Assembly: GCA_039818205.1 (NCBI GenBank)
Contig: JBCBUK010000002.1
Coordinates: forward strand, 192,001 to 256,000
Length of the DNA stretch: 64,000 nt
Direction of reading: 5' to 3'
DNA from: Verrucomicrobiota bacterium
Lineage (GTDB): Bacteria; Verrucomicrobiota; Verrucomicrobiia; Opitutales; Cerasicoccaceae
The notes under the pieces are model-generated. The model made no database searches and was not told the DNA's origin. It saw nothing but the letters and a program-made list of their open reading frames with translations. Position 1 is the stretch's first letter; each line of letters opens with the position of its first letter. A program made the position numbers and the translations under genes. This document shows, in pieces, positions 47,540 to 51,646 of the stretch.

Positions 47540-50500
47540 ATGAAACATACAATCCTACTCGGCCTTGCGGCGATTGGAGCCAGTGCGACCGCCTTTGGTC
47601 ACGGCTCGATGCTCGACCCAGTTAGCCGAGTCTACGAAATCTTTTTGGAGAATCCAGAATCTCCGGATTACCCATCTTCCGAGGCTGCGATTGCCGTTAA
47701 TGGCACGCAGCCTTTCTATGACTGGAGCGAGGTAAATCGCCTCGTTCCCCAGCGAAACTACCAAGAACTCATCCCTGACGGCCAGCTTCCCGGCGCCGGA
47801 CGTGACAAGTACGCGGGATTGAACCTCCTGCGGGACGACTGGCCAGTCACCTCGATTCAGGCAGGTTCCTACGATTTCGTCTACGACGCTCACGTCCCTC
47901 ACGATCCGAGTTACTTTATCGCCTACATCACCAAGCCCGGCTATGATTCGTTGCAGCCCGTTGCTTGGGACGACCTGGAGTTGCTCGATGACAACATCGC
48001 AGCGAACTTGGTCAACGGCCAGTACCTCTTCACCTTGGATCTGCCCGAGCGTAACGGGCGACACGGCATCTATGTGATTTGGCAACGAGTCGATCCTGCT
48101 GGTGAAGCGTTTTTCTCGTGGAGTGATGTTGTTTTCGGTGACGATAATGGCAACACAACTACGCCAACGGACCCTGGCATGTCGGGTGGTCCGAGCTCCC
48201 AATACGTGGACTTCTCGGTGAGCGATAGCTGGGATGGCGGCTTTATTGGTAACGTAACCTTATATAACCCGTTTGATGCAGCGATCAATGGCTGGTCGCT
48301 CGAGTTCGACTTCAACCCGGATATCACCAATCTCTGGAGCGGTGTGATTTCCAGCCGTGGCGACAATCAATACGTTGTCGATAACGCCTCCTGGACTGGA
48401 AGTATTCCCGTTGGCGGTTCGGTGAGTTTTGGATTTCAAGCAAACGGCGATGCTGCACATGCCCACATGTCCAACTTCGTCCTAAACGGGATTGATATCA
48501 GTGACGATCACTCGCACCACGACCCGGACCCAGATCCCACACCGGACCCAGATCCCACACCGGACCCTGATCCCACGCCGGATCCCGATCCCACACCGGA
48601 CCCTGATCCCACGCCGGATCCCGATCCCACACCGGATCCTGATCCGACGCCGGATCCCGATCCTACACCGGATCCCGATCCTACACCGGACCCTGATCCA
48701 ACACCCGATCCAGGGGTGAGCGCTTTGACAGTCGATGTTATTGATGACTGGGGAAATGGATTCACCGCTAATGCAAAATTGACCAATGTCACGGATTCTG
48801 CACTCAGTGGATGGATGATCAGCTTTGACTGGGACTATCAGATTACGAACATCTGGAATGCCGAAATCGTGTCCCAGGAAGGTAACCGCTACACGGTGCA
48901 AAATGCATCCTGGAATGCGAATGTCGGCGCGGGAGCGATCGTCGAATTTGGTTTCAACGGTTCTCCGGGCAACGTTACGGTCCAGCCCACGAATATCACC
49001 CTGAATGGAACTCCGGTTAGCGGAGGTGACCCGACACCAGATCCAGACCCGACACCAGATCCAGATCCCACACCGGATCCCGATCCTACACCGGACCCTG
49101 ATCCGGGGCCCGATCCGAGCAGTGGTGACTTCCGCAAGCGGGTTGTCGGCTATTTCCCAAGCTGGGGCATCTATGGTCGCAACTACTTCCCGAAGGACAT
49201 CCCGGTGGATCAGTTAACCCACGTGATCCATTCCTTTGCCCGGATCTCCACCTCTAACGAAATCGCGATCATTGACCCGTGGGCCGATATCCAGATCTCG
49301 CTGGGTGATGGTGTTTCCAATCAGCCCTTTCAAGGCATCTTCAATGAGTACATTGAACTCAAGGAAGCCAATCCGCACTTGAAGACCTTGATTGCCGTTG
49401 GTGGCTGGTTTGACTCAGGTCGCTTCAGCCAAGTCGCTGCGAGTGCATCAGCTCGTGAGACCTTCGCTCAATCGGTTTTGGACTTCGTGCTTCAGTATCA
49501 ATTCGACGGTGTCGATCTCGACTGGGAATACCCAGTTGTTGCCACCGGTGTGAATGGAAATGTGAGCCCAGCCGATGGTGAAAACTATGTCCTGCTTGCT
49601 CGCGCAATTCGCGACAAGTTCGACGCCCAAAGCGCCATCGATGGAAAAGAGTATTTGATCAGTGCCGCGATCCCGGCGGGTTTTGATAAATACGAGGCCA
49701 TCAACATGGCTGGTTTGGCAGCCGAGCTGGACTGGATCAACGCGATGACCTACGACTACCATGGTCGCTGGGTTAGCAACCGGACTGGCCACAACGCACC
49801 GCTCTACCACAATCCGGCAAACCCGGACAATGATCGATACAACGCCGATTCCACCGTCCAGGGTATGATTTCTATGGGCGTGCCAGCTTCAAAAATCAAC
49901 CTCGGTATTCCACTCTATGGTTATACCTGGCAGGGTGTGCCTTCGGCCAGCAATGGTCTTTACCAGTCGGCCACGGGAACTGGGTTTGGAACGATCGTTG
50001 AGGAGCCTGGTATGGCTGATTATCGGACAATTGCCGCGCTCTTGGAAACGGATCCAACCAACAACCGCGAGTATTGGGACGAAGCGGCTCAGGCGAGTTA
50101 CTTCTATTCATCCACGATGAACGGTGGTTCCTTTGCAGGCTATGACAGCCCCCGTGCGGTTGAGCGTAAGATTGAGTATGTCGACGCGAATGGATTGGGC
50201 GGCGTTATGTTCTGGGAAATCTCGAATGACATTCGCGATTCAACCGATCCAAATAGCTTGATCAAGATCTCGGCCGATGCCTTCACCGAAGTGGCTGACC
50301 CCGGCTTGGGGGCCTTCAACTACGGTGAAGCGTTGCAGAAGTCTTTGTTCTTCTACGAAGTCCAGCGCTCGGGCGAACTTCCTGCGGATAATCGAGTTTC
50401 TTGGCGCGGCGATTCCGCCGTCAACGATGGCTCAGATGTCGGTGTGGACTTGAGCGGCGGTTACTATGATGCGGGAGACCACGTTAAGTTTGTCCTGCCC

Positions 50501-51646
50501 ATGTCGGCTTCGCTGACGCTGTTGGCTTGGGGCATCGACGAGTATCGAGAAGGCTATGCGGATTCGGGTCAACTGGACCAGGCGCTCGATACGATTCGCT
50601 GGGGAACTGATTGGCTGATGAAGGCCCACCCGGAGCCCAATGTATTCTACGCTCAAGTGGGTGATGGTCATGTTGACCACGCCTATTGGGGACCGCCCGA
50701 GGACATGACAATGGCCCGCCCTGCATGGAAGGTGGACGCGCAGAATCCTGGTTCCGATGTTGCGGGCGAAGCCGCGGCGGCGCTCGCAGCTGCATCGATC
50801 ATTTTCCGGGACAGCGACCCAGCCTATGCCGATCAGCTCCTGACACACGCTGAGGATCTGTTTGCCTTTGCCGATCAATATCGCGGCAAGTATTCGGACG
50901 CGATTCCCAATGTAACGTCGTTCTATAACTCCTGGTCGGGTTACAACGATGAGCTCGTCTGGGGTGCTGCCTGGCTCTACAAGGCAACGGGTGATAGCAG
51001 CTACCTGGCGAAGGCCGAGAGCTATTGGAGCTCGTTGCTCGGTGGCTTGAACCCAAGCTGGACGATCAATTGGGACGATAAGTCTTATGGCGCGGCCTTG
51101 ATCCTCGCGCAGGAAACGGGCAAGGATCAATACAAGCAACAGGTTGAAGGCTGGCTCGATAACTGGGTCAGCGGTTCGATCCAAAAGACCCCGGGTGGTT
51201 TAGCTTGGCTCGACCAGTGGGGTAGCTTGCGCTATGCCGCAAATACGGCGTTCCTTGCCTTCGTTTACGGCGATACTGTGAACGACAAGAATGGAACCTA
51301 CACGGGCTTTGCCGCGGGGCAGTTGGATTACATCCTAGGAGACAATCCGAACCAGCGCAGCTACGTCGTTGGCTTTGGCAATAACCCGCCGATCAATCCG
51401 CATCACCGTGCGGCGCATGGGTCGACGACCAATAATATCAACCTTCCAGCAAACAATCTTCATGTTCTTTATGGAGCGTTGGTGGGCGGACCAAATCAGC
51501 CTGATGACAACGCTTACGTTGATGATCGCACGGACTTCATCGCCAATGAAGTTGCGATGGATTACAATGCTGGCTTTACGGGTGCTTTGGCCCGTCAGAC
51601 TCAGGACTTGGGTGGCGATCCGCTTCCCAATTTTCCACAGGACTAA
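47540..51646 (+). CDS. Secreted multi-catalytic CAZyme: AA10 LPMO - CBM2 - linker - CBM2 - linker - GH18 chitinase - GH9 endoglucanase
   Basis: 20-aa signal, then [10 protein letters not shown] (His1 brace), VPH, WQR and EAFF (AA10, ~47600-48136). Two CBM2 (W..GF, GW, W, N..W, FGF). GH18 with GGW and [11 protein letters not shown] (~49127-50280). GH9 with [19 protein letters not shown] and D..NEVA.DYNA (~50315-51643). Confidence 0.93.
48521..48712 (+). repeat. 18-nt coding tandem repeat, (DPDPTP)x10 linker
   Basis: About 10.7 units with synonymous variation, e.g. GACCCTGATCCCACGCCG. Confidence 0.95.
49028..49117 (+). repeat. Second DPDPTP tandem-repeat linker (about 5 units)
   Basis: Encodes [30 protein letters not shown]. 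Confidence 0.93.

Follow-up and report, generated by a model that had tools for sequence, protein, structure and literature searches.

Does a single reading frame in a Verrucomicrobiota genome really join a lytic polysaccharide monooxygenase (LPMO), a chitinase and a cellulase in one polypeptide, and what would such a protein be good for? The question is raised by a gene at positions 47540 to 51646 of a 64,000-nucleotide (nt) stretch of DNA from a member of the Cerasicoccaceae (assembly GCA_039818205.1, contig JBCBUK010000002.1, positions 192,001 to 256,000; hereafter the window), in which an initial annotation, made from the letters alone, had recognized an AA10 LPMO, two family 2 carbohydrate-binding modules (CBM2), a glycoside hydrolase family 18 (GH18) chitinase and a GH9 glucanase. 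Here we find a genuine gene with intact domains that is kept across the genus, and we consider it probable (about 0.62) that it is a vertically inherited, monocistronic gene of a Cerasicoccus-type marine bacterium for a secreted, tethered three-enzyme machine attacking both chitin and cellulose. The tri-catalytic design extends the known LPMO-glycoside hydrolase fusions and is not a categorically new system.

Read from the ATG at 47540, the predicted product of 1368 amino acids (aa) carries, in this order, a signal peptide, the AA10 LPMO, a CBM2, a (PDPDPT)n linker, a second CBM2, a further linker, GH18 and GH9 (Table 1). Behind a predicted 20-aa signal peptide, the motifs described in the initial annotation for the three catalytic domains are all present, once each, and the domain check it had proposed came out clearly, with Pfam placing LPMO_10 (PF03067, 127.6 bits versus a cut-off of 23, profile positions 1-183 of 183), CBM_2 (PF00553, two stretches, 147.8 versus 24), Glyco_hydro_18 (PF00704, 305.7 versus 29.6) and Glyco_hydro_9 (PF00759, 552.2 versus 27.7) far above their cut-offs. 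Judged by their conserved residues, all three catalytic domains look active. The AA10 domain holds HGSM at aa 21 (nt 47600), VPH at aa 119-121 and EAFF at aa 189-192, with His21 and His121 as the predicted histidine brace and Phe191 in the axial position. The two histidines align with the first residue of CbpD and with its His104, named as a brace residue in passages of PMC9344471, and around the axial and second-sphere positions R-VDPAG-E-A-F aligns with R-SDS-P-E-A-F of CbpD. Cleavage of the signal peptide, in which no lipobox Cys was found and whose layout recurs in the orthologue of Cerasicoccus arenae, would make His21 the N-terminus. For GH18, whose best match in the PDB is a two-GH18 chitinase (5gzu/5gzt, E 1e-116), followed by 1itx, the DxxDxDxE motif is formed by D656, D659, D661 and E663 (DGVDLDWE, aa 656-663), and AVGGW, MTYDYHG and MFWE align with 5gzu.

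The GH9 domain, with DAGD at aa 977-980 and NEVA at aa 1336-1339, aligns end to end with the catalytic domain of Thermobifida fusca Cel9A (E4, 1js4; E 9e-178), and D977, D980 and E1337 fall opposite D55, D58 and E424, which we take to be the catalytic residues of that enzyme. Moreover, along what we assume to be the list of functionally important Cel9A residues, it is identical opposite D55, D58, H125, Y206, W209, W256, D261, D262, W313, R317, H376, R378, E424 and Y429, and all PDB matches at E <= 1e-100 (17/17) are named endoglucanase, cellulase or glucanase. T. fusca Cel9A has a rigidly attached CBM3c and a CBM2, whereas the chain here stops 18 aa past GH9 and gave no Pfam match to CBM_3, so that there is no CBM3c, the module needed for processivity of Cel9A. 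Regarding the binding modules, PDB matches of the first CBM2 to the CBM2 of 6bt9 and to 3ndy_E span aa 223-319, and the second aligns with the CBM2a of Cex (1exg, E 1e-17) and keeps the Trp residues opposite W17, W54 and W72, presumably the surface-binding ones; the type-A call was made by alignment for the second module and by eye only for the first.

The same order of domains was found in related genomes. When 41 genomes (that of the window and 40 relatives) were searched at the protein level, 15 gave matches, and in four of the five same-genus genomes (G001, G002, G003 and G005) AA10, CBM2/GH18 and GH9 lie in one frame of 1576-1629 aa, while the fifth (G004, 72% complete) contains the GH9 end only, on a contig of 2500 nt. 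Among species-representative genomes, full-length matches came from C. arenae KCTC 12870, C. maritimus NBRC 105382 and C. frondis NBRC 105381, each labelled AA10-CBM2x3-GH18-GH9 (these three strains may overlap with the same-genus set). The upstream cupin gene and a 214-aa open reading frame (ORF) are syntenic in 4/4 Cerasicoccus loci compared, and the downstream genes are not. The C. arenae orthologue keeps the domain order with (GGDT)n linkers in place of (PDPDPT)n, separates GH18 from GH9 by an additional linker, and contains a middle CBM2, absent here, which would sit at the repeat of linker 1; the CBM2 count is thus two here versus three in the relatives.

Read coverage across the domain junctions, a check named by the initial annotation, was addressed by comparing the gene with independent contigs of run X1, which is probably the source sample. 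These bridge the AA10/CBM2 junction, one contig of 7214 nt bridges the GH18/GH9 junction, and depth is even (36-47) on both sides of the repeat. Tandem repeats of 18 nt lie at 48524-48711 (188 nt, linker 1) and 49028-49104 (linker 2), and within linker 1 the contigs split into pieces of 46-88 nt with a word depth of 115 versus about 40. Within GH18, no listed piece covers 49975-50001, where the terminal 22 letters of one contig look like sequencing adapter; nothing was drawn from this. An assembly chimera or collapsed repeat joining separate genes at the PDPT repeats would find some footing in the repeat itself, in the fragmentation and raised word depth at this site and in the one CBM2 fewer than in the orthologues. 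However, the same domain order in one frame in the same-genus genomes and the three named type strains, kept in C. arenae across quite different linkers, together with the bridging contigs, the even depth either side of the repeat and a search of the genome that turned up no orphan CBM2 contig, led us to reject a chimera, to which we assign next to no probability. The doubt is confined to the copy number of the repeat and the 2-versus-3 count of CBM2.

The suggestion that this is a candidate for a new system did not hold, because the architecture is already in public records, unstudied: the NCBI records of C. arenae, C. maritimus and C. frondis hold the trio as 'glycoside hydrolase family 9 protein', and further examples come from other Verrucomicrobiota and from one Caldilineaceae metagenome-assembled genome (MAG). 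By precomputed Pfam, LPMO_10, GH18 and GH9 are combined in P0002, P0003, P0004 and P0006 among the best 120 of 2713 homologues. Labelling 129 proteins (121 identifiers, query included, and eight ORFs of relatives) by BLAST against the domains of the query gave AA10-GH18-GH9 in 6/129, query included, and AA10-GH9-GH18 in 2/129 (G008 and G010), next to AA10-GH9 (35/129), AA10-GH18 (6/129), GH18-GH9 (2/129, identical sequences), GH9-GH18 (2/129), GH9-AA10 (2/129), GH9-GH9 (7/129) and the single domains GH9 (63/129), GH18 (3/129) and AA10 (1/129). The Caldilineaceae protein P0006 reads AA10-GH18-GH9-CBM3-CBM2x2-cohesin and the 1787-aa ORF of G010 reads AA10-Calx x2-GH9-CBM2-GH18 by Pfam, while G008 has a single ORF of 2267 aa (L016:1220-8023, + strand) with AA10-CBM2-Calx x3-CBM2-GH9 followed by two GH18 stretches. 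In G012, an AA10-CBM2 part and a CBM2-GH18-GH9 part lie on separate proteins, and other genomes labelled g5 have GH18 without GH9.

Domain trees separate these trios. The Cerasicoccus type forms its own clade on the AA10, GH18 and GH9 trees (support 97-100), G008 and G010 nest among AA10-GH9 proteins, and P0006 nests among Caldilineaceae AA10-GH9 proteins, its GH18 standing on a long separate branch; on the GH9 tree G010, G008 and P0006 stand in separate, well-supported clades. On a 62-row GH9 tree (P0005, identical to G012, left out; 14 GH9-only rows kept), the approximately unbiased (AU) test rejects monophyly both of the eight trio rows (p 3e-52) and of the 11 rows combining GH9 and GH18 (p 8e-39). 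Taken together, trees and AU test indicate that the trio was assembled at least three separate times, and this repeated independent assembly argues that combining the three is selected. Two routes are visible in these sequences, one apparently by joining GH9 to an AA10-CBM2-GH18 type and the other by joining GH18 to an AA10-...-GH9 type, and the Cerasicoccus protein looks like AA10-CBM2-GH18 with GH9 added. The pairing of GH18 with GH9 is rare but recurrent. When the GH18+GH9 half was run in full with HMMER against 1.84 billion cluster representatives, seven of the best 150 had multi-stretch matches, and among 16 of the best 150 scanned with Pfam (five multi-stretch and eleven long; P0170 left out) none had GH18 and GH9 together, the partners of their GH9s being GH48, GH5 or GH8; the two domains occur together in P0002 alone, which is the cluster representative closest to the query. 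The GH18 of P0064 and P0067 (GH9-GH18 without AA10) is very distant.

Some related proteins deserve mention in their own right. The ORF of G008 comprises four catalytic domains in one chain. Two Verrucomicrobia MAG loci (L039 and L040) encode GH9-GH18 fusions with no AA10 in the frames read, their GH18 being 31% identical to the one here, like that of P0064 and P0067. In another genus, proteins of 1431-1439 aa (L017:1553-5848 in G015 and L018:1266-5585 in G009, both - strand) carry an N-terminal CBM2-like match, several hundred Pfam-less residues, three CBM2 and a GH18; a 524-aa piece of the Pfam-less stretch from G015 matched no Pfam family at E <= 5, and the stretch may be another unknown chitinase-attached module.

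To judge the polymer addressed by the AA10, its relatives were compared. Best PDB matches were CbpD (8c5n, 7sqx), 6if7, 7zjb (ScLPMO10D) and 5fjq (CjLPMO10A), with E 1e-46 to 7e-29, followed by the cellulose-active 4oy7, 5uiz, 5opf and 4oy6 (E 6e-17 to 6e-13), and CBP21-type LPMOs matched only at E 1e-4 or weaker. With the 'hybrid' AA10s near subclade A2, CbpD of Pseudomonas aeruginosa, ScLPMO10D of Streptomyces coelicolor and Tma12 (E 1e-46 to 2e-45), the domain shares the YDW-x-E/G-V-N motif of L2 and the R...E-x-F second sphere, but those carry S-A-P-H or T-A-x-H and none is fused to a GH, whereas H-V-P-H is found here. According to passages of PMC10067821, CbpD is chitin-oxidising and ScLPMO10D acts on chitin only, despite its resemblance to cellulose-active AA10s; passages of the same paper and of PMC9344471 describe a polar pair with T-A-x-H (S-A-P-H in CbpD) for chitin-active AA10s and Phe-Trp with W-A-x-H for cellulose-active ones. 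In an alignment of 52 AA10 domains, the Cerasicoccus enzymes show YDW-S/H with A-H-V-P-H, in which His replaces Thr/Trp and Val the conserved Ala, and the Caldilineaceae clade shows a cellulose-like A-W-A-P-H. The missing canonical motif bears on substrate prediction and not on membership in AA10; judged on this alignment, known motifs do not predict the substrate polymer here. The H-V-P-H type occurs in AA10-GH18 proteins (P0032, P0038, P0063), in AA10-GH9 proteins (P0025, P0026, P0034, P0035, P0037, P0040, P0047) and in the stand-alone AA10-CBM2 protein of G012, and within it no motifs specific to GH9-fused or GH18-fused domains were found. These fusion partners suggest a subclade able to serve either hydrolase. 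It is conceivable, if doubtful, that H-V-P-H enzymes are dual-substrate LPMOs oxidising crystalline chitin as well as crystalline cellulose, and that the Cerasicoccus enzyme is a single-chain degrader of composite particles. A dual-substrate AA10 would explain the wiring to GH9, GH18 or both on at least three separate occasions, and one oxidase would then prime two different hydrolases on composite chitin-cellulose particles.

Two statements of the initial annotation were borne out by the literature: AA10-GH18 fusions exist, as described for Jd1381 of Jonesia denitrificans in passages of PMC10154629, and our search for work on the trio or on carbohydrate-active enzymes (CAZymes) of Cerasicoccus found no paper on an AA10+GH18+GH9 enzyme, the Cerasicoccus papers among the matches listed being mostly 16S surveys and PMC10288369 giving taxonomy only. 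The passages of that 2023 review (PMC10154629) name Jd1381 (AA10-CBM5-GH18) as the then sole characterised bicatalytic LPMO, whose full-length form beat any mixture of its domains, and passages of a 2024 paper (PMC11705215) add CcLPMO10-Man5 of Caldibacillus cellulovorans, so that on these passages two natural LPMO-hydrolase fusions are characterised, both bicatalytic. As in multicatalytic LPMO-GH enzymes generally, an N-terminal AA10, CBMs and GH domains lie here on one predicted secreted chain, and Jd1381 likewise combines an N-terminal AA10, a CBM and a GH18 on one secreted chain, but with two catalytic domains instead of three, CBM5 in place of CBM2 and no cellulase; moreover, passages of PMC10067821 group its AA10 with typical chitin-oxidising AA10s, in contrast to the CbpD- and ScLPMO10D-like domain here. 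CcLPMO10-Man5 resembles our protein in combining activities against separate polymers of a composite substrate, and differs, by the same passages of PMC11705215, in being bicatalytic, with a cellulose-active LPMO joined to a GH5 mannanase via CBM3s and directed at lignocellulose, not chitin. Also related are uncharacterised Verrucomicrobiota fusions of the type AA10-CBM2-Calx-beta-GH9(-CBM3), which belong to the same AA10 and GH9 clades as the query and likewise carry CBM2s, but have no GH18, and of which most have Calx-beta and often CBM3; G008 and G010 are of this type with a C-terminal GH18. Passages of the survey of Talamantes et al. (2016; PMC4928363) report 217 multi-activity GHs in 11,953 genomes, only six of them targeting cellulose and chitin with cellulase and chitinase on one chain as here; that survey counted GH domains only, and its passages give no AA10-GH18-GH9 example.

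Building on the gene with its domains and motifs, its conservation in the genus and the repeated assembly of the trio, the protein may work as follows. After presumed export beyond the outer membrane, signal-peptide cleavage would free His21 for the copper histidine brace, which needs this residue and is why the AA10 would be N-terminal. The two type-A CBM2s, on long Pro/Asp/Thr linkers, would anchor the protein to flat crystalline surfaces of beta-1,4-glycan, where the AA10 would nick crystalline chains oxidatively, GH18 would hydrolyse chitin by substrate-assisted retaining catalysis and the Cel9A-like GH9, without the CBM3c of processive relatives, would cut beta-1,4-glucan endo-wise. The benefit, with any synergy between the domains, would be greatest where chitin and cellulose co-occur, as in fungal, oomycete and algal walls, faecal pellets and marine snow, and a mixed chitin-cellulose substrate is plausible. 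A single chain that combines an oxidase with hydrolases of two distinct polymers would offer a test of tethering synergy on composite substrates, of whether one AA10 serves chitin and cellulose, and of the role of the unusual H-V-P-H second shell. The repeated assembly of the trio hints that particles mixing chitin and cellulose are a genuine ecological target, three named strains that have culture-collection numbers carry orthologues, and for biotechnology the protein is a ready-made design for multi-activity enzymes.

Several observations weigh against a tethered machine for chitin and cellulose. The nearest characterised AA10s are chitin-only or chitin-active, so the AA10 may serve GH18 alone, and the canonical T-A-x-H or W-A-x-H was sought without success, H-V-P-H fitting neither the chitin nor the cellulose pattern. 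The groups for the AU test were named only after the trees were seen, and the CBM2 count (2 vs 3) sits at a tandem repeat beyond short-read contig resolution. Furthermore, the gene is isolated among housekeeping or unassigned genes, and features of a polysaccharide utilization locus (PUL; transporter, regulator, downstream glycosidases) were sought among the neighbours and none was found. In this genome (99.97% complete; searched with hidden Markov models (HMMs) on six-frame translations after a loose first look), neither GH1, GH3 nor GH94 was found, nor nagB (TIGR00502). A nagA candidate was rejected, its single 20-bit match being named dihydroorotase by NCBIfam, and the one match to PF01182 is nearest pgl (122.2 bits versus a cut-off of 124.45). 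The one GH20 (L013:7879-11179, contig C7) overlaps the final part of the gene for a MurQ-like protein of 523 aa, resembling N-acetylmuramic acid 6-phosphate etherase below cut-off, which suggests cell-wall recycling and not chitobiose use. To call the gene a 'one-gene system' was thus too strong. The downstream enzymes not found by these searches, which is no proof of their absence, also leave room for wall breaching or for a public good whose products feed other cells.

How do other explanations compare? The fusion could belong to an either/or generalist that saves secretion and regulation costs in a CAZyme-poor bacterium, with a chitin-specific AA10 helping only GH18 and GH9 working on cellulose elsewhere as an independent passenger; this agrees with the chitin activity of the nearest AA10s, with a genome in which this gene has the only GH18 and a single AA10 and a single GH9 turned up in the protein search, and with the free shuffling of modules in the family (G012 and the g5 genomes), but an H-V-P-H AA10 fused to GH9 alone in 7/35 AA10-GH9 proteins would be odd for a chitin-only LPMO, and the trio was assembled independently several times, which makes a lack of cross-talk unlikely. 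Less probable still appears a non-nutritional factor by which eukaryotes such as algae, oomycetes, fungi or tunicates are colonised or their chitin- or cellulose-containing walls and coats breached, giving access to other nutrients or a hold for attachment. It would fit the lack of any GH1, GH3, GH94, nagA or nagB equivalog or PUL found in the genome and the closest solved AA10, CbpD, being a virulence factor, and passages of PMC10067821 report chitin-active LPMOs in bacteria not degrading chitin. Yet GH3 was found in 3/5 same-genus genomes and a Glucosamine_iso protein of about 640 aa, not found in this genome, in 4/5, so that the genus may well eat the products, and the absences here rest on HMM searches of six-frame translations; nor did the analysis bring up any host association. 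An all-chitin machine, in which GH9 cuts deacetylated, chitosan-like stretches of chitin in place of cellulose, could invoke the glucosidase/glucosaminidase subgroup of GH9 active on chitosan oligomers (abstract of PMC6096475) and the many proteins in which GH9 is fused to chitin-clade-like AA10s; against it stand the similarity to T. fusca E4, the residues kept opposite its presumed functional list and the uniformly glucanase-type PDB names, and a GH9 glucosaminidase or chitosanase was rejected on residue conservation, leaving this explanation very improbable. A tethered attack on both polymers remains the reading that we prefer.

The frame is open from 47453 and ends with the stop codon at 51644-51646. 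The divergent upstream gene ends at 47056, and a single sigma-70-like match at 47207-47235 is weak and no better than chance. A terminator-like hairpin begins 49 nt past the stop codon and the next downstream gene (51859-52629) is convergent; together with the upstream intergenic region, this makes the gene monocistronic. Its G+C content is similar to that of the surrounding DNA, and the neighbouring genes encode an exonuclease, a metallo-beta-lactamase-fold (MBL-fold) protein, a cupin, an SDF symporter, tRNA synthetases and unassigned ORFs.

Table 1. Features of the tri-catalytic gene and its flanks, in positions of the window (CDS, coding sequence; UTR, untranslated region).
Feature	Position	Strand	Basis
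Upstream intergenic region, 483 nt; presumed promoter and 5' UTR	47057..47539	+	no ORF inside
CDS, 1368-aa tri-catalytic protein (P0001)	47540..51646, stop included	+	frame, translation, Pfam
Sec signal peptide, aa 1-20	47540..47599	+	read from sequence; cleavage site inferred
AA10 LPMO domain, aa 21-197	47600..48130	+	Pfam, PDB matches
CBM2 number 1, about aa 222-320	48203..48499	+	Pfam, PDB matches
Linker 1, (PDPDPT)n, 65 aa	48521..48715	+	10.4 copies, 18-nt tandem repeat
CBM2 number 2, aa 399-491, type-A CBM2a-like	48734..49012	+	Pfam, 1exg alignment
Linker 2, (PDPDPT)n, 37 aa	49019..49129	+	18-nt tandem repeat
GH18 chitinase domain, aa 534-897	49139..50230	+	Pfam, PDB matches
GH9 beta-1,4-glucanase domain, aa 928-1350	50321..51589	+	Pfam, PDB matches
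Intrinsic-terminator-like hairpin	51695..51734	+	13-bp stem, 8 G-C pairs, T-rich tail

Four flanking ORFs of 256, 268, 589 and 214 aa (51859-53517, 55000-56769 and 46412-47056, all on the - strand) had no Pfam or NCBIfam family. Elsewhere in the genome, a second secreted CBM2 protein of 673 aa is encoded (contig C4, 4094-6115, - strand; locus L014), consisting of a signal peptide, two CBM2s and a 384-aa domain. As a conserved partner of the tri-catalytic protein it was rejected, being found in 0/15 other genomes of the family with this query. Its 384-aa domain has no Pfam match (E <= 5) and no PDB sequence match, but 756 homologues, mostly 'hypothetical' proteins of about 390 aa, in which the glutamates of WE and GE[FY]G are invariant. 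An AlphaFold2 model (mean predicted local distance difference test, pLDDT, 92) shows a (beta/alpha)8 barrel, nearest GH5_4, GH5_18, GH157 and GH39 at 9-14% identity, and on this model the domain is possibly an unclassified glycosidase of clan GH-A.

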